Shown: one piece after another, positions 1-6,441 of the stretch
Layout of the letters: every line of letters begins with the position of its first letter
How positions within the stretch are numbered: the first letter of the stretch is position 1
Notes under the pieces: generated by a model
Seen by the model: the letters and a program-made list of their open reading frames with translations, nothing else
Told to the model about the DNA's origin: nothing
Databases searched by the model: none
IMG/VR virus record: IMGVR_UViG_2695420889_000001
Location: 1-6,441 of that record
Direction: 5' to 3' (one strand)
DNA: 6,441 nt
Source: a virus
Lineage: Duplodnaviria > Heunggongvirae > Uroviricota > Caudoviricetes
Program-made: the position numbers and the translations under genes

Positions 1-32
1 GCAAAAGAGAGTCAGGGCAGATAAGTGTGGTG

Positions 33-109
33 TGGCGCGTTGTACTGGATTCGAACCAGTGACCGATTGCTTAGAAGGCAATTGCTCTGTCCGGCTGAGC
101 TAACAACGC
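33..109 (-). tRNA. tRNA-Arg, anticodon UCU (reads AGA/AGG)
   Basis: Minus-strand read GCGTTGT-TA-GCTC...GAGC-A-ATTGC-CTTCTAA-GCAAT-CGGTC-ACTGG-TTCGAAT-CCAGT-ACAACGC-G-CCA folds as a full cloverleaf with a perfect 7-bp acceptor stem, encoded CCA and anticodon TCT. By position it matches the distal Arg tRNA of the Stx-phage ileZ-argN-argO trio; that naming is analogy only. Confidence 0.88.
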
Positions 110-122
110 ATGATGCTGATAA

Positions 123-199
123 TGGACTGCCATCGGGGACTTGAACCCCGCACAGCCAGCTTCGAAGGCTGGCGCTCTGTCCCGATGAGCTAATGGCGG
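123..199 (-). tRNA. tRNA-Arg, anticodon UCG (reads CGA, possibly CGG)
   Basis: Minus-strand read CCGCCAT-TA-GCTC...GAGC-G-CCAGC-CTTCGAA-GCTGG-CTGTG-CGGGG-TTCAAGT-CCCCG-ATGGCAG-T-CCA. D, anticodon and T arms are canonical; the acceptor stem has one C2:A71 mismatch. Anticodon TCG. Confidence 0.75.
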
Positions 200-208
200 T
201 ATGTGATA

Positions 209-284
209 TGGTGGCCCTTGCTGGATTTGAACCAGCGACCTGGCGATTATGAGTCGCTCGCTCTCACCACTGAGCTAAAGGGCC
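209..284 (-). tRNA. ileZ: tRNA-Ile2-like, anticodon CAU (lysidine type, reads AUA); tRNA-Met not excluded on anticodon alone
   Basis: Minus-strand read GGCCCTT-TA-GCTCAGTGGTGAGAGC-G-AGCGA-CTCATAA-TCGCC-AGGTC-GCTGG-TTCAAAT-CCAGC-AAGGGCC-A-CCA. It resembles E. coli ileX as recalled from memory much more than elongator tRNA-Met. One A27:C43 mismatch in the anticodon stem. Confidence 0.88.
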
Positions 285-293
285 GGAAGCAGA

Positions 294-322
294 ATAATAA
301 TGGTGCGTAATTAATTCTGCAA
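294..322 (-). promoter_or_regulatory. Candidate sigma70 promoter for the tRNA cluster (-35 TTGCAG, 17-bp spacer, -10 TATTAT)
   Basis: Minus strand between the methyltransferase stop and the tRNA-Ile 5' end reads TTGCAG-aattaattacgcaccat-TATTAT-tctgcttcc-GGCC(tRNA). The -10 is a 5/6 match, the -35 a 3/6 match. Hexamer match only. Confidence 0.3.
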
Positions 323-333
323 TCTCATCCGTT

Positions 334-1383
334 TCAAACGATTAAATCCTGAACTTCCCTGACTGTCTGCTCAAAACGTCCGGTCTCCAGCTCAACACCA
401 ATCGCACGACGCCCCAGTGCCATCGCCGCTTTTACCGTTGAACCCGACCCCATGAAAAAATCCGCAACCAGATCACCAGGACGACTACTTGCGCTGATTA
501 TCTGCTGCAGCATTTCTGCCGGTTTTTCGCACGGATGTTTCCCGGGATAGAACTGCACCGGTTTATGTGTCCACACATCCGTGTACGGCACCTGCGCCGT
601 CACACCAAAATACCGCCGCAGATGCTTATATTCACTCTGCAGCTCCACATACTGCCGGTTCAGTGACGTATACGTATCCACCAGCTGGTGGTGGGGCTTT
701 TCCAGTTCACCGCGCTGATGTTTCTCTTCTGCCACCCGGGCAAACAGCGCCTGTAATTTCAGATAATCACTTTCGTTCGGCAACTGCCACTGACCGGCAC
801 TGAACCAGTGCGACACCATGTTTTTCTTTCCTGTGGCATCTGCAATCTGTTTTGCCGTTATCCCCAGGGCAGCGCGCGCATCACGAAAGTAAGCAATCAG
901 CGGGGCCATCACATGCTGTTTCAGTGCCCTGCCCTTCGCCTCATACCCGGCATCTTTCGGACGATACGGCCCCTGATAATGTTCCGCGAACAGAATGCGC
1001 TCTGTGGCGGGGAAATACGCCCGCAGGCTTTCCTTGTTGCATCCGTTCCAGCGTCCGGACGGCTTCGCCCAGATAATATGGTTCAGCACACTGAAGCGTT
1101 CACGCATCATGATTTCGATATCAGATGCCCGGCGATGACCACAGAACAGGTAAAGACTTCCGGCAGGTTTCAGCACCCGCCAGAACTGCGCCAGACACTG
1201 GTCCAGCCACTTCAGGTAATCATCGTCGCCCTTCCACTGGTTATCCCAGCCCTCAGGCTTCACTTTAAAGTACGGCGGGTCCGTGACTATCAGGTCAACA
1301 GAATTTTCGGGTAACGACCGGATAAATTCCAGGCAGTCGGCGTTGATTAACTCACAACTGGATATTTTTACAGTATTAAACAT
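334..1383 (-). CDS. DNA N6-adenine methyltransferase, beta-class (N6_N4_Mtase family), apparently orphan
   Basis: 349-aa ORF with ATG start. Motif IV DLIVTDPPY at residues 31-38, HPCEKP at 283-288 and AdoMet motif FFMGSGST at 309-316; the IV-before-I order defines the beta class and DPPY favours N6-adenine. No restriction endonuclease ORF is adjacent in the window. Confidence 0.9.
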   Translation of the reverse strand: MFNTVKISSCELINADCLEFIRSLPENSVDLIVTDPPYFKVKPEGWDNQWKGDDDYLKWLDQCLAQFWRVLKPAGSLYLFCGHRRASDIEIMMRERFSVLNHIIWAKPSGRWNGCNKESLRAYFPATERILFAEHYQGPYRPKDAGYEAKGRALKQHVMAPLIAYFRDARAALGITAKQIADATGKKNMVSHWFSAGQWQLPNESDYLKLQALFARVAEEKHQRGELEKPHHQLVDTYTSLNRQYVELQSEYKHLRRYFGVTAQVPYTDVWTHKPVQFYPGKHPCEKPAEMLQQIISASSRPGDLVADFFMGSGSTVKAAMALGRRAIGVELETGRFEQTVREVQDLIV

Positions 1384-1415
1384 GGATCATTAAGCCTGTC
1401 TCTGATAGGCTCATT

Positions 1416-1434
1416 CTGCTTTTGCGCAAAGCAG
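1416..1434. promoter_or_regulatory. Inverted repeat with perfect 10-bp palindromic core TTTGCGCAAA; candidate operator or promoter upstream of the methyltransferase
   Basis: Plus strand ctgct-TTTGCGCAAA-gcag, about 35-50 bp upstream of the methyltransferase ATG. On the minus strand it overlaps a weak promoter-like arrangement (TTGCGC, 16-bp spacer, TATCAG). Confidence 0.3.
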
Positions 1435-1520
1435 TGGGCCTTAGGTTTGCTTGTGATCCAGACGCATGAGCAGATGGCTGGTGAGTGCCCCTAACACCCA
1501 CCAGCCGCCCATTTACCACA

Positions 1521-1548
1521 AATAAAAAAGCCTTCAGGACTGAAGGCG
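1521..1548 (-). terminator. Rho-independent terminator
   Basis: Minus strand GCCTTCAG-tc-CTGAAGGC (7-8 bp GC-containing stem) followed directly by TTTTTTATTT. The hairpin overlaps the last codons and stop of the small upstream ORF. Confidence 0.75.
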
Positions 1549-1731
1549 TCTGTAACAACCGAACTGATAGTCTGCCAGACCCGCCATAACAAGCTGGGTC
1601 AGTATTAGCTGGCAGCGTTCGCGTGAAAGGTACGTATTCTGTGCAATCTCCCCGACAGTCGCCGGTTCGGTGGCACTTAATTCATTAAAAACCACTCTGG
1701 CGGTTTCGGTCATATCCTGCTGTTTCAGCAT
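1534..1731 (-). CDS. Small hypothetical protein (65 aa from the ATG) with a winged-helix or HTH-like segment
   Basis: The ORF track gives 1534..1818, but codon 1 there is GTG with no SD. The in-frame ATG at 1731 is preceded by AAGGGAAAAAGAC. Product MLKQQDMTETARVVFNELSATEPATVGEIAQNTYLSRERCQLILTQLVMAGLADYQFGCYRRLQS has an HTH-like core (TVGEIAQNTYLSRERCQLILTQL). Contains rare codons AGA x2, ATA and CTA. Confidence 0.5.
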   Translation of the reverse strand: MLKQQDMTETARVVFNELSATEPATVGEIAQNTYLSRERCQLILTQLVMAGLADYQFGCYRRLQS

Positions 1732-1852
1732 GTCTTTTTCCCTTTTCCGGTTAACGTGACACACCAATAACTCTTGTCGAAAAAGCCAGCAAGCTGAAAG
1801 ACCGGTATTCACAACCACCAGCGCGTTTACTGTACATGACCGATTTCAGCCA

Positions 1853-1878
1853 TAAAAAAACCCGCTCGCGGCGGGTTT
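1853..1878 (-). terminator. Rho-independent terminator immediately downstream of Q (tR'-like)
   Basis: Minus strand AAACCCGC-cgcga-GCGGGTTT followed by TTTTTTTA, about 70 nt after the Q stop codon. Confidence 0.8.
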
Positions 1879-1946
1879 AAGCTGTGTGGCGAAGTAACCA
1901 CTCTTAACATACTGACATACTTTTTGCGGACCGCGCTAATCATTTT
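1879..1946 (-). promoter_or_regulatory. Expected position of the late promoter and Q-utilisation site (pR'/qut); hexamers not resolved
   Basis: Position only: between the Q stop (1947-1949) and the tR'-like terminator. No convincing -35/-10 pair was found by eye. A TTGACG hexamer inside the Q 3' end lacks a partner -10. Confidence 0.25.
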
Positions 1947-2327
1947 TTACTTTTTTAGCAGCCAGTCGTCCATCTCCAGTCTTACCCCCAGCACAGACAA
2001 ACATCCGTCAATAAACCCTTCGGCTATCTGCATCTCAATTCGTATTGCTTTTTCACTTTTCTTTCTCGTCCTGGCTATCTGTCTTTTTGATATTCGCAAC
2101 AAATAATGAGCAATGAGAAGCGAATACTCCTCAGGTTTTTTCTGCTTCAGACGAGCAAGACAGTTTTCAATGATAAGTCCGTCATCATCGCAGCAGGCCG
2201 GACGTGGTTTAGTGGCAGATGGTAAAAGTCCTTTGAATCCGGCAGCGATCGGAGAATAGTCCACCCCGGTGTTACCACTTGCCGCCCATGCCCCCCAGCG
2301 TTCAAGAACCATCTGAATATCACGCAT
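1947..2327 (-). CDS. Q: Late-gene antitermination protein Q (82/QuuD-like family)
   Basis: 126 aa from the ATG at 2327, preceded by GGAGA with 6-nt spacing; the ORF-track start at 2342 is TTG. N-terminus MRDIQMVLERWGAWA and a CC-containing core match what I recall of QuuD-type Q proteins. It is followed directly by an intrinsic terminator and the late-region cargo. Confidence 0.75.
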   Translation of the reverse strand: MRDIQMVLERWGAWAASGNTGVDYSPIAAGFKGLLPSATKPRPACCDDDGLIIENCLARLKQKKPEEYSLLIAHYLLRISKRQIARTRKKSEKAIRIEMQIAEGFIDGCLSVLGVRLEMDDWLLKK

Positions 2328-2344
2328 CAACTTTCTCCACAAAA

Positions 2345-3340
2345 TCAGGCCAGCACGCCAATTGCCAGTGCACGATCGATAAAACGAAATATCAGCTCCA
2401 GCTGGGAGCCATACTTCTCTTCAAATGCCACGGTATCCGCATGCAGCTCGTCATGGTGTTTTCTGCACAAAGGCAACACAAAAAGGTCATGCGCTTTTGT
2501 ACCCATTCCACCCTGACCATGACCAATCAGGTGATGAGGATCGTCGGCTGGCTTACCACAACATGCACACGGCTGCGTCTTAACCCAGCGCGTGTACTTT
2601 TCATTAACCCAGCGACGACGTTTGGGGCGTAACATAAAAGACTCCGGCGACTCCGGATCCACTTTCAGCGCCAGCACCTTTTTCGCTTTATCCTGGATGA
2701 TGCTGGTGGCAGGAACCGAAGGCACAAGGTCACTTTCCCGGGTGACAGACGGCACAACAGGTTTCGGTAATCTCAGCGCCTTACGGGCTGCGCTTTCAGG
2801 TAAGGCATCCGCCAGGTCATTACGAATCAGCCACCAGCACAGTTCCGGCATTGTCACGGCATGGTTATCATCAAAACCGAGATCCCGACGGACTACAGAC
2901 AACACCCAGCGGGCACAGTTATCCGTTGCCATTGATTCCAGCCGTTCCGTGAACTGATCGCGCAGCTGGTTATCGCAGTGCCAGCACAGACGGATTGCGC
3001 CCGGAGCGTGTCGCATTGTGGTCATGTTCTCGCTGTGCCATCCGGAATGAGGCCACTGGCAGCCTTTTTCACGAAGTAACCAGCTTTCAAGACATTCCAC
3101 GCCACCAGCACGACGGATCACTGCCTCATTGCGGAACACGGCCCGAACGGCAGGATCATCCGCCAGCGGTTGTGATGCTGCCGGAACGGCACCGCTGGCG
3201 AAAGATGAATAACGTTCCGGCTCAGGCTCCAGCAGGACACGCCCCTGCATAAACAGGGGCATCAGCTCTGAACCGGGTCTGAACAATACAATCCCCATTC
3301 GCGGGGCAATTTCAGGAGTCAACAATGCTCTCACGGTCAC
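2345..3340 (-). CDS. DUF968-family (YdfU-like) protein with C-terminal Cys/His-rich HNH-like motif; start codon uncertain
   Basis: Long minus-strand ORF. C-terminal region KTQPCACCGKPADDPHHLIGHG...LCRKHHDELH resembles the HNH-like DUF968 domain of lambdoid prophage proteins. The 3340 start is GTG; in-frame ATGs at 3298, 3262 and 3250 are alternatives and none has a strong SD. Confidence 0.65.
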   Translation of the reverse strand: MTVRALLTPEIAPRMGIVLFRPGSELMPLFMQGRVLLEPEPERYSSFASGAVPAASQPLADDPAVRAVFRNEAVIRRAGGVECLESWLLREKGCQWPHSGWHSENMTTMRHAPGAIRLCWHCDNQLRDQFTERLESMATDNCARWVLSVVRRDLGFDDNHAVTMPELCWWLIRNDLADALPESAARKALRLPKPVVPSVTRESDLVPSVPATSIIQDKAKKVLALKVDPESPESFMLRPKRRRWVNEKYTRWVKTQPCACCGKPADDPHHLIGHGQGGMGTKAHDLFVLPLCRKHHDELHADTVAFEEKYGSQLELIFRFIDRALAIGVLA

Positions 3341-3385
3341 CTCAGCGAACGATATTGCATGAACACAGGAGAAAAAATTCAGCCA

Positions 3386-3643
3386 TCACGCAGTAAACTC
3401 CTTCACCAGAGTTTCAAACTGGCTTACCTTGCCTTCCAGTTCCGCCACGCAATCCACCAGCTCATCCACCGCCTTTTGTGTGCGGTGTTTTGCCTGCAGC
3501 AGATCACGAAGCGCCGGAGTAAGCTGCTTGCGGAGCGTATCCTTTGCCACGCTCATTTTTTCCATCTGTTCAGCACAACGAAGCATCTCCTGCGCCTGCC
3601 GACGAAGTTGTTCCGGTGAAACAGTGGTTGTTCTGTTGTTCAA
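3386..3643 (-). CDS. Small hypothetical coiled-coil protein (85 aa from TTG, or 66 aa from the ATG at 3586)
   Basis: The TTG start is preceded by GGAG at 8-nt spacing and overlaps the helicase TGA stop (TTGA). Product is rich in E/K/Q/L/R. An equal-length ORF on the opposite strand (3359..3619) looks like an antisense artefact. Confidence 0.45.
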   Translation of the reverse strand: MNNRTTTVSPEQLRRQAQEMLRCAEQMEKMSVAKDTLRKQLTPALRDLLQAKHRTQKAVDELVDCVAELEGKVSQFETLVKEFTA

Positions 3644-5040
3644 AATAAACGCTCCGTTTTACTACCCGACATGCGGTTATTGCTGTATCTGCGCGGATTG
3701 CCCGGCGTCATGGGAGTGGAAAGAACCCGGGCACTCTCCTGATCCACAGGCAGAAAATGCCCGTTATGAAAACGCCGGTAAATGGTACCCAGCGTGCCAT
3801 TACGCTGTTTCGTGATGTTGATTTCTGCTATGCCTCTCGCCAGTGTCTCCGGGTTGTACACCTCATCCCTGTAAAGCATCAGAATGATGTCTGCATCCGC
3901 CTCTATTTCCCCGGAGTTTTTCAGGTCCGAGTTCATGGGGCGTTTATTGGGTCTGGATTCCACGCCACGGGAGAGCTGGCTCAGAGCAATCAGCGGAAAA
4001 CCGCCGGATTTTGCCAGGCTTTTAAGTCCCTTTGAGATTTCCCCCACAGCAAGGTCGTGACGCCCCGTGCTGCGGGTTTTAATCAGGCCGAGGTAATCGA
4101 CCACCACCAGCGCCGTTTCCGGATGCTTCATCCGGTGGTGCCTCGTGGTTGCACATATCTCATCAATGGTCAGATTTGCCTGGTCCACCATCCAGATATT
4201 ACGCCCCGTCATTCGTCCCACGCCCTGTGAGAAACGCGCCCAGTCTTCATCTTCAAAACGGGCAACAGACTTAAGACGGGATACCGGCATTCCCCCTGCT
4301 GCAGACACCATACGTTCACCAATCTGGATGTTCGCCATCTCCATGGTGAACAGAAGCACGCCATGCCCCTGCTCAGTCACCTTGTCGATGATGTCCAGCG
4401 CAAGTTCTGTTTTCCCCATCGAAGGACGGGCGGCAATGAATACCAGGTCTCCGGGCTCCATACCGCCCGTTTTTGCGTCCAGTTCATCAATACCGGTCAT
4501 CAGCGCCCTGGATTTCTCCAGTCCCTGATTCCGGCATTCAACACGGCCCACCACTTCCGGAAGGACATCATCAATGTGAACCGGCTGAATGACGCCCTTT
4601 CCGGTCGACAGTGAGGCCATCATGTTCTGCGCATCCTTCAGGGCATCTTCTGCCGCTTCGCAGGTATGTGCATCACGTAAATTCTGTAATGCTTCAGTCA
4701 GTGTTTTTTCTGCATCGCGCAGTGCGGCATTGCGTCGCAGCGCTGCAACATAGTGCTCCAGTGAAGACTTCACCCAGGTTTTGCGCCCGGTGTCGGTAAT
4801 CACCGGGGCAAGTTCCGGCATCTCATTGCACAGCAGCACGGGGTCAATGACGCCGGATACGCGGGCCTGTCTGCAAATCCCCGCGTAAATATCCCGGTAC
4901 TGACGCACGAAAAATACATCCGCCGGAAGCGTGGCCAGAATATCCATCACTTCCGGATCAGCCCCACGCAGAAAAAACGCGCCAATCACCGCACCTTCCA
5001 GGTCATCATTACGCCACACCGGATTTGTTGGGTTTGTCAT
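3640..5040 (-). CDS. Replicative DNA helicase, DnaB family
   Basis: 466 aa from the ATG at 5040, which overlaps the upstream gene's stop as ATGA; the ORF-track start at 5079 is TTG. DnaB-like N-terminal domain, Walker A ARPSMGKTELAL and the RecA-like core of DnaB helicases. Confidence 0.9.
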   Translation of the reverse strand: MTNPTNPVWRNDDLEGAVIGAFFLRGADPEVMDILATLPADVFFVRQYRDIYAGICRQARVSGVIDPVLLCNEMPELAPVITDTGRKTWVKSSLEHYVAALRRNAALRDAEKTLTEALQNLRDAHTCEAAEDALKDAQNMMASLSTGKGVIQPVHIDDVLPEVVGRVECRNQGLEKSRALMTGIDELDAKTGGMEPGDLVFIAARPSMGKTELALDIIDKVTEQGHGVLLFTMEMANIQIGERMVSAAGGMPVSRLKSVARFEDEDWARFSQGVGRMTGRNIWMVDQANLTIDEICATTRHHRMKHPETALVVVDYLGLIKTRSTGRHDLAVGEISKGLKSLAKSGGFPLIALSQLSRGVESRPNKRPMNSDLKNSGEIEADADIILMLYRDEVYNPETLARGIAEINITKQRNGTLGTIYRRFHNGHFLPVDQESARVLSTPMTPGNPRRYSNNRMSGSKTERLF

Positions 5041-5927
5041 GCTGCCACACCTCTGATATGCGCACGGTAGCTTTCCCAACCAAACACCAGGCAGTTACGC
5101 CCACCATCAGTAACGCGATCCACAATCCGTTCACCAATGGATTCCTTAAGCTGTTCAAAAGTCAGGTTGCTGATCAAAATTGTCGGTAAAACGCTTTCGT
5201 AACGCGCATTTATGATTTCCTGCAGGATGGTTATCTCCGCAGGCGTACCGAACTGCACACCAACCTCATCGATAATAAGCAGGTCCAGCGATACAAAATG
5301 GTCAATAACTTCATCTTCAGTGCGCTCAGAATTGTGACGCCAGGTATTTTTCACAGCGCGGGTCAGTCGCATAACATCAGTAATTTCGACGGTCGCCAGG
5401 TGGTGGCGAATAATATTTTTTGCCATTGATACAGCCAGGTGATTTTTCCCGGTACCGCAATTGCCAATCATGATCATGCTGGTGCCTGCAGCGAGACATT
5501 TTTTCCAGGAAGCGGCGTAGCGCTGACAGGCTTCAAGGTTTTTCTGTGCGTCAGTATTCACCGCCTGATAATTATCAAACTCACAATCCTGGAACCGGCG
5601 GGCAATAGCGGCCAGATCGAGTAATTCACGAACCTTCAGGGCGCGTAATTCGTCATACACGCAGTCCAGCTCCTCACTGAGGCAGGAAAGGCAACCGGAC
5701 ACCCGTTTGACAGCTTTCCCTCTTACATCCGGGCCTGTCAGCACATAGCGTGTGTATTTTCCGTGTTTCCCGCAGGACACCGTCTCAGTGCTTTGCACCC
5801 AATGCTCACAGCGCCACGGACGCTTTCCGCCACGGACAAATGCCAGCTCCTCTTCCAGGTCTGCCTTGCGGTTAAGTAACTGCGCTTTGTCGTGTTGCAT
5901 GTATTGTTTGTTCAGGAAATTAGTCAT
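5037..5927 (-). CDS. DnaC/IstB-like AAA+ helicase loader with Cys-rich N-terminal extension
   Basis: 296 aa from the ATG at 5927; the ORF-track start at 5948 is GTG. Walker A GNCGTGKNHLA and Walker B LLIIDEVG. N-terminal ~90 aa carry a possible zinc-ribbon (WRCEHW...SCGKHGK...GCLSC). Stop overlaps the helicase start. Confidence 0.88.
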   Translation of the reverse strand: MTNFLNKQYMQHDKAQLLNRKADLEEELAFVRGGKRPWRCEHWVQSTETVSCGKHGKYTRYVLTGPDVRGKAVKRVSGCLSCLSEELDCVYDELRALKVRELLDLAAIARRFQDCEFDNYQAVNTDAQKNLEACQRYAASWKKCLAAGTSMIMIGNCGTGKNHLAVSMAKNIIRHHLATVEITDVMRLTRAVKNTWRHNSERTEDEVIDHFVSLDLLIIDEVGVQFGTPAEITILQEIINARYESVLPTILISNLTFEQLKESIGERIVDRVTDGGRNCLVFGWESYRAHIRGVAA

Positions 5928-5944
5928 TTTCACACCCCACAAAA

Positions 5945-6441
5945 TCACCAGTTGAAGTTCGTTGAGCCGTAGTCCTGTTCACTGAATCCCGAGATCGGGA
6001 GGCTTTTGCCCCGCCCACCTCCGGGAGCTGCTGACTGTTGCCAGGATTCGTCAAAGTGCCGATCGGGGCCAAAGAACGTCGATGCCTGCTTCACGAACTG
6101 GGTGCCGGTATTTCCTGAGACACGCACCCAGGCGGCATAGCGTTTCACACCGTTGAGCATGGTTTCGGGTGTCACACCTTCCCTGATACGGGCTTTCCAG
6201 GCTTTGAAGGCTGCTGACTTGGAATTACCACCAGCACGTTTGGGATATTCCTGCCAGGCCTGTTCAAATTCCGGTGAATATTCCTGTCGGGCAGAACGTG
6301 CTGGTGCAGACGCGTCAGCGGATGCGCCAATAGTGTTTTTACTCTCTGTAGTATTCTCTGAAGTAATCTCTGTTGTATTCTCTGTAAGATCGAAATTGGT
6401 TTTCCCTTCTCCGCGGCGAGGGGTTTCCCGTGTCCGCGGTG
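5945..6441 (-). CDS. Replication initiator, lambda O-like (replisome organiser), 5'-truncated by the window edge
   Basis: Hand translation of the minus strand is open from 6441 to the TGA at 5945-5947; the 76-aa track ORF is only its C-terminal tail. Contains direct repeats in a TENTTEITSENTTES linker and a C-terminal FEQAWQEYPKRAG...KAWKARI domain. Lies immediately upstream of the loader and helicase. Identity is inferred from architecture, not homology. Confidence 0.65.
   Translation of the reverse strand, partial: PRTRETPRRGEGKTNFDLTENTTEITSENTTESKNTIGASADASAPARSARQEYSPEFEQAWQEYPKRAGGNSKSAAFKAWKARIREGVTPETMLNGVKRYAAWVRVSGNTGTQFVKQASTFFGPDRHFDESWQQSAAPGGGRGKSLPISGFSEQDYGSTNFNW
6343..6390. 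repeat. Four tandem 12-bp direct repeats (TCTCTG + 6 nt); candidate origin iterons inside the initiator gene
   Basis: TCTCTGtagtat / TCTCTGaagtaa / TCTCTGttgtat / TCTCTGtaagat at 6343, 6355, 6367 and 6379, with a short AT-rich patch (aatagtgtttttact) adjacent at 6328-6342. Confidence 0.6.

Follow-up and report, generated by a model that had tools for sequence, protein, structure and literature searches.

A near-copy of the M.EcoGII adenine methyltransferase gene among the late genes of a Shiga-toxin-type phage, preceded by a conserved structured RNA leader

Introduction

M.EcoGI and M.EcoGII of Escherichia coli O104:H4 C227-11 have been reported as non-specific adenine methyltransferases, which are identical to each other at 333 of 349 positions, i.e. 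with 16 differences (PMC5778455), and homologues showing 92–93% similarity were classified as 'nonspecific' in REBASE-based typing (PMC6602927). Members of this family are silent in the lysogen and toxic (PMC5778455; PMC12707154), lysogen silence having also been observed by RT-PCR in ST131 (PMC4659465). The anti-restriction role of M.EcoGII is a published inference rather than a demonstration (PMC5778455; PMC12707154). Murray et al. named the enzyme of phage 1720a-02 as a close relative of M.EcoGII (PMC5778455).

A cassette of the type described here was noted earlier for QO111-type Stx2a phages (PMC10462455). Stx2 phages with a QO111-type Q (Stx2_EH2201 and the prophages of 11128, RM13516 and 155; PMC10462455) display the gene order DUF968, Q, a hypothetical gene of 65 codons, DNA methylase, three tRNAs and stx2AB. 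In phage 933W (annotation of Plunkett et al., NC_000924), Q is likewise followed by a qut/terminator segment, a tRNA trio and stx2AB; the 258-nt leader transcribed from its pR' is the precursor of StxS. For stx of phages of the 933W and H-19B types, it is established that read-through of tR' requires Q (PMC7547250).

In this study, a stretch of 6,441 nt (positions 1–6,441 of IMG/VR record IMGVR_UViG_2695420889_000001; referred to here as the window) was compared with these systems. The methyltransferase gene of its cassette is of an ordinary type that has been characterised before in prophages: it nearly duplicates that of M.EcoGII and is placed among the late genes of a Shiga-toxin-type phage. 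Since the methyltransferase is ~95% identical to M.EcoGII and the cassette is common, the main finding is already known, and the sole potentially new item of the locus is a structured RNA leader upstream of the methyltransferase gene, which seems to be undescribed.

Results and Discussion

Late-operon architecture of the locus

All features that an initial annotation had proposed were recovered: they lie on the minus strand, and their positions agree exactly or closely with those proposed. The antiterminator Q gene was placed at 1947–2342 as the longest ORF (relatives are annotated with a 126-aa version that starts ~15 codons further in) and matched PF06530 (Phage_antitermQ) with an E value of 1.6e-52. 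The matching gene in Stx2_EH2201 and E. coli 25-07338 is annotated as 'phage antiterminator Q', and the deduced protein exhibits 49% identity to Q of 933W.

Homology to 933W also located the initial transcribed, qut-like segment of the late promoter pR' at 1879–1910, as part of the Q module, the annotated qut and first terminator of 933W being 83% identical to window positions 1854–1910. The promoter block GTTAAGAGTGGTTACTTCGCCACACAGCTTAA was found to be common to loci whose Q variants are 47–74% identical (L005, L019, L084 and L085), while loci with other Q types carry other blocks. A sigma-70 scan of positions 1–2500 returned no matches and the pR' hexamers were not found, and pR' was therefore placed by homology alone. 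The Q module ends in a tR'-type intrinsic terminator (1851–1878), composed of a stem-loop at 1858–1878 with eight base pairs, five of which are G-C, and a T-run at 1851–1857 (T7 in the terminator scan). In related loci, each Q type closes with its own hairpin and T-run, directly after which homology of the cassette begins.

At the other end of the cassette, ARAGORN and Rfam identified three tRNA genes (33–284) of the ileZ (CAU), argN and argO types, individually located at 209–284, 123–199 and 33–109, respectively. This region is 92% identical to the tRNA region of 933W, and in both E. coli 25-07338 and Stx2_EH2201 tRNA-Ile, tRNA-Arg and tRNA-Arg are annotated ahead of stx2A and stx2B. With Q, the qut segment, the terminator and all downstream genes on the minus strand, the locus has the architecture of a Q-dependent lambdoid late operon.

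An orphan methyltransferase of the M.EcoGII family

The gene at 334–1383 (minus strand) encodes a 349-aa β-class N6-adenine DNA methyltransferase. Its product matched PF01555 (N6_N4_Mtase) across residues 29–340 (E value of 7e-45; 154.1 bits against a curated cut-off of 26.7). Inspection of the translation revealed the DPPY sequence of motif IV at residues 35–38 (nt 1270–1281) and motif I (FxGxG) as FMGSG at residues 310–314 (nt 442–456). The protein thus has an N-terminal DPPY, a central target-recognition domain and a C-terminal SAM-binding FxGxG, which is the motif order of the β class and the one given for M.EcoGII (PMC5778455). Together with the homology to 933W, these features bear out the initial annotation of an orphan β-class adenine methyltransferase gene that is encoded on the strand of the late genes, behind Q and a terminator of the tR' type. 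Sequence relatives in the PDB were headed by unnamed methyltransferases (E value of 1e-25), followed by RsrI and CcrM, and also included MboIIA and DpnA; no solved structure of M.EcoGII was present among these matches.

The relationship to M.EcoGII, which the initial annotation had left for protein comparison to settle, was shown to be close: the two proteins are both 349 aa in length and align over their full length without large indels, with 331 of 350 positions identical (~95%), a value uncertain by about a percent because the reference sequence (Supplementary Table S1 of PMC11551740, machine-read from the PDF) carries evident reading errors. The best phage match was the enzyme of 1720a-02 (96.6% identity). 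Most of the ~19 substitutions relative to M.EcoGII are located in residues 233–275; only five positions (191, 197, 212, 235 and 237) differ within the target-recognition domain, the bounds of which (160–237) follow PMC11551740. Based on homology to M.EcoGII, the window allele is expected to methylate adenines non-specifically, although the 19 differences could in principle alter its specificity.

An enzyme that instead recognizes a defined sequence, for example in a Dam-like manner, and that regulates the phage life cycle or host genes rather than providing broad anti-restriction would agree with the naming of some copies as 'site-specific DNA-methyltransferase' or 'dam', and orphan phage methylases with regulatory roles, such as P1 Dmt, do exist (cited in PMC12707154). 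Such database names are automatic, however, and PF01555 is a family other than that of Dam; given also the 95% identity to an enzyme proven to be non-specific and the near-conservation of the target-recognition domain, this alternative is considered most unlikely.

The view that the methyltransferase has no restriction partner was upheld, as no restriction-endonuclease gene was identified in the window or in 20 kb of annotated sequence from the closest genome; neither was an endonuclease present in SfV, mEp460, cdtI or any other phage context that was examined.

Distribution of the cassette among Stx and non-Stx phages

The cassette was present in 1977 of 5426 complete E. coli genomes. It was also found in phage records of the Stx2a (11), Stx2c (15), Stx2 (3) and Stx2d (1) types, as well as in the non-Stx phages SfV, cdtI and mEp460. 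The initial annotation had held that Stx phages proceed from Q straight to the tRNAs, which is true of 933W and not of these Stx phage records; the impression of a rarity among Stx phages is thereby corrected. With at least four types of Q upstream of it, and with stx, nanS-like or holin genes after it, the cassette was shown to move as a unit.

The closest genome is 97.3% identical over the window and carries stx2AB next after the tRNAs. Stx2 phages with a QO111-type Q, together with 1720a-02, exhibited 95–97% nucleotide identity and have their gene order in common with the window, which stops before stx; no difference of substance from these phages was observed. Like M.EcoGI and M.EcoGII, the window enzyme is a prophage-borne orphan encoded in the same kind of phage context (1720a-02); compared with M.EcoGII, the window copy is carried by a phage of the Stx2 type, where a QO111-type Q and the ileZ-argN-argO tRNAs flank it. 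In contrast to the window, 933W lacks the small ORF, the second terminator and the leader described below, and its methylase gene is reduced to a C-terminal remnant comprising the last 33 codons.

A small winged-helix gene and a second terminator

Between the tR'-type terminator and the methyltransferase gene, positions 1534–1731 (minus strand) encode a stand-alone protein of 65 aa, for which AlphaFold2 predicted a winged helix (topology H1-b-H2-H3-b-hairpin; pLDDT of 90.5). Foldseek searches with this model returned generic winged-helix matches only (best E value of 1.4e-3), with MarR-, IclR- and OMT-type domains ranking best and SelB among the fold matches; the sole Pfam hint was TrmB (E value of 1.2e-3), below its curated cut-off. 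Comparison with close alleles yielded dN/dS values of 0.05–0.13, the pooled differences amounting to 384.5 synonymous versus 129.5 non-synonymous changes on 45 and 150 sites, respectively. The ORF is a genuine gene under selection and not a chance ORF, and its designation as winged-helix-like in the initial annotation is supported by the predicted structure.

In every one of the 81 close loci whose upstream sequence was long enough, the small gene was observed at a distance of 10–14 nt from the leader. Among more diverse loci that possess both leader and methylase, it is present in ~35 of 59 viral or phage loci and in 13 of 22 genome loci, and is missing from the others (~24 and 9, respectively; ~40%). 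It is therefore a frequent, non-obligatory companion of the methylase. N15 and phiKO2 encode a distant winged-helix homologue (gp51) ahead of their methylase.

The second intrinsic terminator that had been proposed was also recovered (1520–1547, minus strand), with a stem of seven pairs at 1530–1547 that overlaps the stop codon of the small ORF and a T-run at 1520–1529 (T6 in the terminator scan). In cassettes of the E. coli type its stem is kept while its loops vary; in the mEp460/cdtI and Providencia versions the terminator is weak or absent.

A conserved structured RNA leader upstream of the methyltransferase gene

A structured RNA leader of 140 nt, which ends at the ATG of the methylase gene, was identified at 1381–1520 (minus strand) by means of a covariance model (R1) built from a hand-specified structure and Infernal alignment. 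The model matched the window leader with 122 bits (E value of 1.3e-30) and returned a single match per locus at 59 loci, always on the sense strand and directly 5' of the methylase gene or of a Com-like ORF plus methylase. The structure comprises four helices, namely P0 (1507–1511 with 1435–1439), P1 (1493–1506 with 1476–1489), P2 (1466–1473 with 1447–1454) and P3 (1428–1434 with 1416–1422). Overall, 89.3% of cells were paired, compared with 29–46% in slid controls, and compensatory changes were present in 29 of 32 pairs, compared with 9–16 in the controls; none of 500 shuffles reached the observed covariation. When RNAalifold was applied to a MAFFT alignment of 27 leaders, only P0 was recovered because MAFFT misaligned the variable hairpins.

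P3 coincides with the palindrome at 1416–1434 (CTGCTTT-GCGCA-AAAGCAG on the minus strand) which the initial annotation had raised as a possible binding site of the small protein. The repeat exists and behaves as an RNA helix: all seven of its pairs showed compensatory changes, and it is one of the four helices of a conserved leader that is found on the sense strand only.

The helices might alternatively be regarded as inverted repeats for dimeric proteins within a DNA-level signal, such as an operator, a promoter or a Chi-containing recombination site. The 5' arm of P1 does hold Chi (GCTGGTGG) and is invariant in E. coli-type loci, and the annotators of N15 and phiKO2 placed a late promoter nearby. 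That promoter and its terminator, however, are situated upstream of the element and outside it, while pairing within the element is kept through G-U wobble (GU and UG pair types), which is workable on the sense strand only. P1 is moreover retained as a hairpin despite wholly different sequences between phage groups, and P0, the enclosing helix, joins bases ~70 nt apart. A signal acting at the DNA level is thus regarded as very improbable, and the preferred interpretation is that of a structured RNA.

The leader was found solely before methylases of the M.EcoGII family, in Enterobacterales and in Aeromonas and Vibrio phages. Searches against Rfam 15 revealed no match to it: at E≤1, the window yielded tRNAs and an antisense artefact on a tRNA only, and the leaders of 11 diverse loci gave no match at E≤0.1. 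As regards named RNAs of the region, AgvB and AsxR (RF02702/3), which are Rfam families, produced no match, and StxS belongs to the 933W-type pR' leader. A pattern scan of the genome collection gave 108 matches, against ~180 estimated by chance; 22 of the 100 matches that were searched were confirmed by the covariance model, and those in Helicobacter pylori and most of those in MAGs were attributed to chance. Three further elements within or near the leader were rejected: the P6 hairpin (1393–1411, terminator-like on the plus strand), the register of which differs between subgroups and the partner bases of which are mostly invariant, and two ORFs, one of 23 aa starting at the leader AUGGGC and an upstream ORF of 12 aa overlapping the methylase start, neither of which is retained as a reading frame in the versions from Providencia, phiKO2 and N15.

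Possible roles of the leader and the small protein

The AUG of the methylase gene is not preceded by a Shine-Dalgarno sequence at normal spacing, and we infer that the leader may limit translation of the toxic enzyme. In Aeromonas and Vibrio phage relatives, a Com-like zinc-finger ORF lies between leader and methylase; in such loci the leader precedes the Com-like ORF and not the methylase start, which argues against simple occlusion of that start. As a tentative proposal, the leader could represent an undescribed class of cis-regulatory RNA that is dedicated to M.EcoGII-family methyltransferases and that switches translation of the toxic enzyme. In such a switch, the invariant 5' AUGGGC can pair with either a proximal GCYCRU or a distal GCCCAY, and a distal AGGC would compete for the conserved GAGCCU. 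Among the alternative helices, the sequences allow for PA (85% paired) and P4 (82%), the variation of which is mainly one-sided or wobble, while P5 (57%) holds in the lambdoid subgroup only; these properties make a switch possible without demonstrating it. Its input might be a ligand, SAM and SAH being obvious candidates, the enzyme itself, since M.EcoGII also acts on RNA, or a small partner protein, for which the winged-helix protein in the window and the Com-like protein in Aeromonas and Vibrio phages might be candidates.

In phage Mu, the com-mom operon contains a toxic DNA-modification gene that is silent in the lysogen and the translation of which is controlled by a hairpin in the mRNA together with Com, a small protein. 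The locus studied here resembles com-mom in that a toxic late modification enzyme follows a small gene and a structured 5' region, and in that methylase relatives in Aeromonas and Vibrio phages bear a Com-like ORF. In contrast to com-mom, the small protein in the window is a winged helix rather than a zinc finger and the enzyme is a methyltransferase rather than Mom. By analogy with Com on mom mRNA, the winged-helix protein would act as an RNA-binding activator or repressor of methylase translation via the leader. Its gene directly precedes the leader within one transcript, and some winged-helix domains, e.g. that of SelB, bind RNA hairpins; the missing Shine-Dalgarno sequence and the Com-like ORFs would also agree with such a function. 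Nevertheless, ~40% of loci have leader and methylase without the small protein, and in N15 and phiKO2 the winged-helix gene precedes the late promoter and terminator as annotated, and is hence on another transcript than the methylase. This function is therefore rated as rather unlikely.

Control at the DNA level was also weighed for the small protein. C proteins are Xre-type helix-turn-helix proteins that control an endonuclease via C-box operators. The gene in the window similarly specifies a small protein with a DNA-binding fold just upstream of a methylase-related gene, and the initial annotation had proposed that it controls the methyltransferase. If it acted as a C-protein-like transcriptional controller, it would recognize the 1416–1434 repeat in its DNA form and thereby determine how strongly or when the methylase gene is transcribed. 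A winged helix is compatible with DNA binding, the small gene adjoins the leader in all of the close loci mentioned above, and the gp51 homologue is found upstream of the methylase in N15 and phiKO2. In contrast to C-protein systems, however, the fold is not of the Xre type and an endonuclease is absent, while the candidate operator behaves as an RNA helix and P3 is kept in loci without the winged-helix ORF (e.g. VHML, L160 and L228). The sigma-70 scan, moreover, revealed no promoter-like site between tR' and the methylase, which includes the interval between the small ORF and the methylase. In view of these observations and of the ~40% of loci that lack the small gene, the proposal was not sustained and is judged improbable.

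Proposed mode of expression and implications

We consider it probable (roughly 0.8) that the locus constitutes a two-gene 'moron' cassette, comprising the winged-helix gene and the M.EcoGII-family methyltransferase gene, at the standard moron site just behind pR'-qut-tR' in a lambdoid Stx2-type prophage, and that it serves late anti-restriction. In the lysogen, transcripts from pR' would halt at tR' (1858–1878), and any read-through would meet the second terminator (1530–1547), so that the toxic enzyme would stay off. Upon induction, Q would modify RNA polymerase at qut, and the modified polymerase would pass both terminators, the small ORF, the leader, the methylase gene and the tRNAs, and in the closest relatives also stx2AB and the lysis genes. 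The 140-nt leader 5' of the start codon would probably add a post-transcriptional brake. Once produced, the enzyme would methylate adenines of replicating phage DNA in essentially any context before packaging, which would shield the progeny from many adenine-sensitive restriction systems. Such late expression and anti-restriction, as also envisaged in the initial annotation, would correspond to the interpretation that the literature already offers for enzymes of this family (PMC5778455; PMC12707154).

The window thus adds a further member to a familiar enzyme family that is in commercial use, in the prophage setting that is usual for it, and the cassette, the double terminator and the leader form one mobile unit. 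This unit makes the packaging of hyper-methylated DNA and a wider host range testable in Stx and other lambdoid phages, a claim that is inferred even for M.EcoGII. Should the leader indeed act as a regulatory switch, the tolerance of cells and phages for the gene of a non-specific methylase would be explained, and knowledge of the leader could help those who struggle with the expression of M.EcoGII.

Gene content and identity of the methyltransferase

Every gene of the window is carried by the minus strand. In order of transcription, these are the terminal part of an O-like replication gene, a DnaC-like ATPase (5037-5948), the DnaB helicase (3640-5079), an 85-aa ORF, a DUF968/HNH protein (2345-3340) and, just after it, the antiterminator Q (1947-2342; PF06530, E=1.6e-52). 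Behind Q, a stem at 1858-1878 with a T-run forms an intrinsic terminator, and another, with its stem at 1530-1547 and again a T-run, follows the small 65-aa ORF (1534-1731). After a gap of 150 nt comes the gene of a methyltransferase of 349 aa (334-1383; PF01555, E=7e-45), and then three tRNAs (209-284, 123-199 and 33-109). This layout agrees with the initial annotation at each coordinate, including an inverted repeat at 1416-1434, and an endonuclease gene is absent from the window. The DUF968 protein, of the ydfU type and with an HNH-like C-terminus, co-varies with the Q type across loci (48-98% identity). The tRNA at 209-284 was assigned as tRNA-Met (CAT) by ARAGORN and as a lysidine-dependent tRNA-Ile (ileZ) in the RefSeq annotation of the same gene; an Rfam 'Plastid-ycf2' match on the plus strand (211-284) is an antisense artefact of this tRNA.

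M.EcoGII, a beta-class enzyme of 349 aa, is encoded by a prophage of E. coli O104:H4 and has the same residue as its paralogue M.EcoGI at 333 of 349 positions (Murray et al., PMC5778455). A relationship to this enzyme, previously left untested, proved to be one of close orthology: the catalytic motifs are intact and in beta-class order (DPPY, residues 35-38; FMGSG, 310-314), and 331 of 350 positions are identical in an end-to-end alignment, in which both gaps and a few mismatches resemble reading errors of the reference (Supplementary Table S1 of PMC11551740, machine-read from PDF). The best phage match was 1720a-02, whose protein is 96.6% identical and whose nucleotide sequence agrees at 96.4% across window 30-2400. 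M.EcoGI and M.EcoGII are reported to be adenine non-specific, unexpressed in the lysogen and harmful on expression (PMC5778455; PMC12707154); homologues at 92-93% similarity were typed as 'nonspecific' (PMC6602927), and an M.EcoGI homologue (99%) in ST131 is transcriptionally silent (PMC4659465). We infer that the window allele shares the non-specific activity of M.EcoGII.

A late-operon cassette shared with Stx2 phages

The cassette forms a unit at the pR' moron site. In all 81 close viral loci whose contigs extend far enough upstream, the small ORF was located 5' of the methylase, at fixed spacing; the three close loci without it have only 33-213 nt of upstream contig. At least four Q types were observed upstream of the close loci, with stx2, nanS-like genes or holins downstream. 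Each Q type was associated with its own promoter block and terminator, and homology of the cassette (small ORF, second terminator, intervening leader and methylase) started directly after the terminator T-run. The lambda-like group carries TAACGATGGG, the lambda pause motif. In 933W, the stretch that carries the annotation of qut plus first terminator matches window 1854-1910 at 83% identity, which supports the assignment of 1858-1878 as tR'. No sigma-70-like promoter was detected in window 1-2500. Late, Q-dependent expression of the cassette is thus predicted, and well supported, by its position and homology.

Of 5426 complete E. coli genomes, 1977 carry the methylase gene; a tblastn search of a phage collection detected it in 96 records, among them converting phages for Stx2a (11), Stx2c (15), Stx2 (3) and Stx2d (1), as well as phiP27, SfV, cdtI, mEp460, N15, phiKO2, PY54, VHML and phiO18P. 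Past the tRNAs, the closest genome, 97.3% identical across window 33-6441, goes on to stx2A, stx2B, a nanS-like esterase and lysis genes, a gene order also present in Stx2_EH2201. In Stx2a phages, full-length putative methylases have been described 3' of QO111-type Q, with remnants of ~50 aa elsewhere (PMC10462455). In 933W, the order is Q, pR', qut, terminators, tRNAs and stx2, and only the last 33 methylase codons (85% identical) are retained (L244 1467-1565), directly upstream of ileZ-argN-argO and fused to a tRNA region with 92% identity to the window. Judged from this remnant, the 933W arrangement looks like a deletion derivative of a cassette-bearing form. The earlier contrast with Stx phages, said to proceed straight to the tRNAs, therefore holds for the 933W type only and fails for cassette-bearing Stx2 phages. 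The finding is real but ordinary: a standard orphan methylase cassette of the M.EcoGII family, occupying the pR' moron site in a Stx2-like prophage of the QO111 type. Such cassettes are already annotated in hundreds of records, and the biochemistry of the enzyme is known through its orthologue.

The small winged-helix ORF is a frequent accessory

The small ORF is a real gene: dN/dS values against close alleles are 0.05-0.13, and a protein database contains 341 homologous clusters, for many of which NCBI uses the name 'TrmB family transcriptional regulator'. Its AlphaFold2 model is a confident winged helix (pLDDT 90.5), and a fold search returned generic winged-helix domains only (E about 1e-3), from MarR/IclR regulators, the N-terminal domain of O-methyltransferases, SelB RNA-binding domains and Z-alpha. 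Alongside their methylase gene, mEp460, cdtI, Stx2c phages and a Providencia phage carry divergent versions of the small ORF, with identities of about 50%. Gp51 of N15/phiKO2 is a weak homologue in the equivalent relative position, separated there from the methylase by an annotated late promoter and terminator. Among diverse loci, about 35 of the 59 from viruses or phages and 13 of the 22 from genomes have the small ORF, which is thus a frequent accessory of the methylase rather than a required partner. The proposal that the small protein controls the methylase through the 1416-1434 palindrome is not supported, given this frequent absence and the palindrome being a helix (P3) of the leader RNA.

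A conserved structured leader precedes the methylase

Conservation is higher in the 150 nt that separate the small ORF from the methylase than in the genes on either side; a Providencia phage with proteins merely 48% and 62% identical retains AAATGGGCGGCTGGTGGGTGTTGGTAGCACC in this region. One plan is shared by the sequences preceding the methylase in about 150 other loci, consisting of a terminator, UGAAAUGGGCG, a variable-sequence hairpin, a second hairpin, AAGGCCCA, a third hairpin, GAGCCUAnCA and AUG. A nested structure was specified on a nine-sequence seed, with P0 (UGGGC/GCCCA) enclosing P1 and P2, and P3 (1416-1434) located 3' of P0; 88.5% of seed cells were paired, compared with 31-45% for slid partners. 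The derived covariance model gave exactly one match, always on the methylase-sense strand, in 59 of 92 non-redundant loci, and no further match in the 385 kb searched. The end of each match coincides with the methylase ATG, except in three loci, where it meets a Com-like ORF that precedes the methylase.

In the resulting alignment, whose fitting to the covariance model favours structure, 89.3% of cells were paired (slid controls 29-46%), 29 of 32 pairs showed compensatory changes (controls 9-16) and the covariation score was 0.50 (controls at most 0.12); none of 500 shuffles attained the observed values. Despite this fitting, P1 and P3 displayed three to six pair types per position. A protein-blind pattern scan of species-representative genomes yielded 22 model-confirmed leaders, in Enterobacterales, Plesiomonas and Pseudaeromonas, with an M.EcoGII-family methylase downstream in all 21 that had downstream sequence. 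Leader-bearing methylase genes occur in phages of Enterobacterales, Aeromonas and Vibrio. No Rfam 15 family matches the leader, which appears to be the sole undescribed element of the cassette.

The 140-nt leader (1381-1520, minus strand) is also present in comparison loci L003, L004, L086-L091 and about 50 others. Locus L085 (2329-2497) carries a 29-nt insertion in P1 and still scores 98 bits. An enterobacterial-type leader and methylase (proteins 79% and 92% identical) were found in a MAG labelled Geobacteraceae (L311) and in Limoniibacter endophyticus (L310), respectively; these cassettes seem misplaced for their taxa, and contamination or mis-binning may explain them. In more distant methylase relatives, the roughly 200 nt ahead of the gene contain another conserved leader, unrelated to the first (GCCTTGAGTACCTGAGACCCA...TGGAGAGGAAGCA...hairpin...TTCAAGGCTC; L186, L178, L145, L199 and about 25 others), preceded by a CTGT-N8-ACAG palindrome of the LexA-box type. 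A third type occurs in L210, L211, L225 and L235; neither type has a match in Rfam.

Against an expectation of 0.32, the 6.4 kb contain 10 copies of Chi (GCTGGTGG), a count reached in 0 of 200 shuffles. Of these, eight lie on the transcribed minus strand (678-685, 1498-1505, 1815-1822, 2831-2838, 3102-3109, 3454-3461, 4104-4111 and 6228-6235) and two on the plus strand (684-691 and 2702-2709); one lies within the invariant 5' arm of P1 and another just past tR'. This pattern suggests selection for protection from RecBCD.

Possible function of the leader

The methylase AUG is not preceded by a Shine-Dalgarno sequence at the usual distance; the closest AGG is 12-15 nt upstream. In single-sequence folds, the invariant AUGGGC can pair with a proximal GCYCRU (PA) as an alternative to the distal GCCCAY (P0), and the conserved GAGCCU is a possible partner of the distal AGGC (P4); across the alignment, PA and P4 are 85% and 82% paired, with scarce two-sided change. 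In Aeromonas/Vibrio-type loci, a Com-like zinc-finger ORF lies between leader and methylase and overlaps the methylase start (L089 2329-2544; the leader-methylase interval of L169 and L172; L281), an arrangement that recalls Mu com-mom; in phiARM81ld it is annotated as 'translational regulator Com-like protein'. Loci in which the leader precedes this ORF argue for leader action at the unit's 5' end and not on the methylase start alone. A genuine regulatory switch is given a modest prior. Based on the start context and the alternative PA and P4 pairings, it is plausible that the leader would serve as a translational gate for a toxic enzyme, in the spirit of Mu com-mom.
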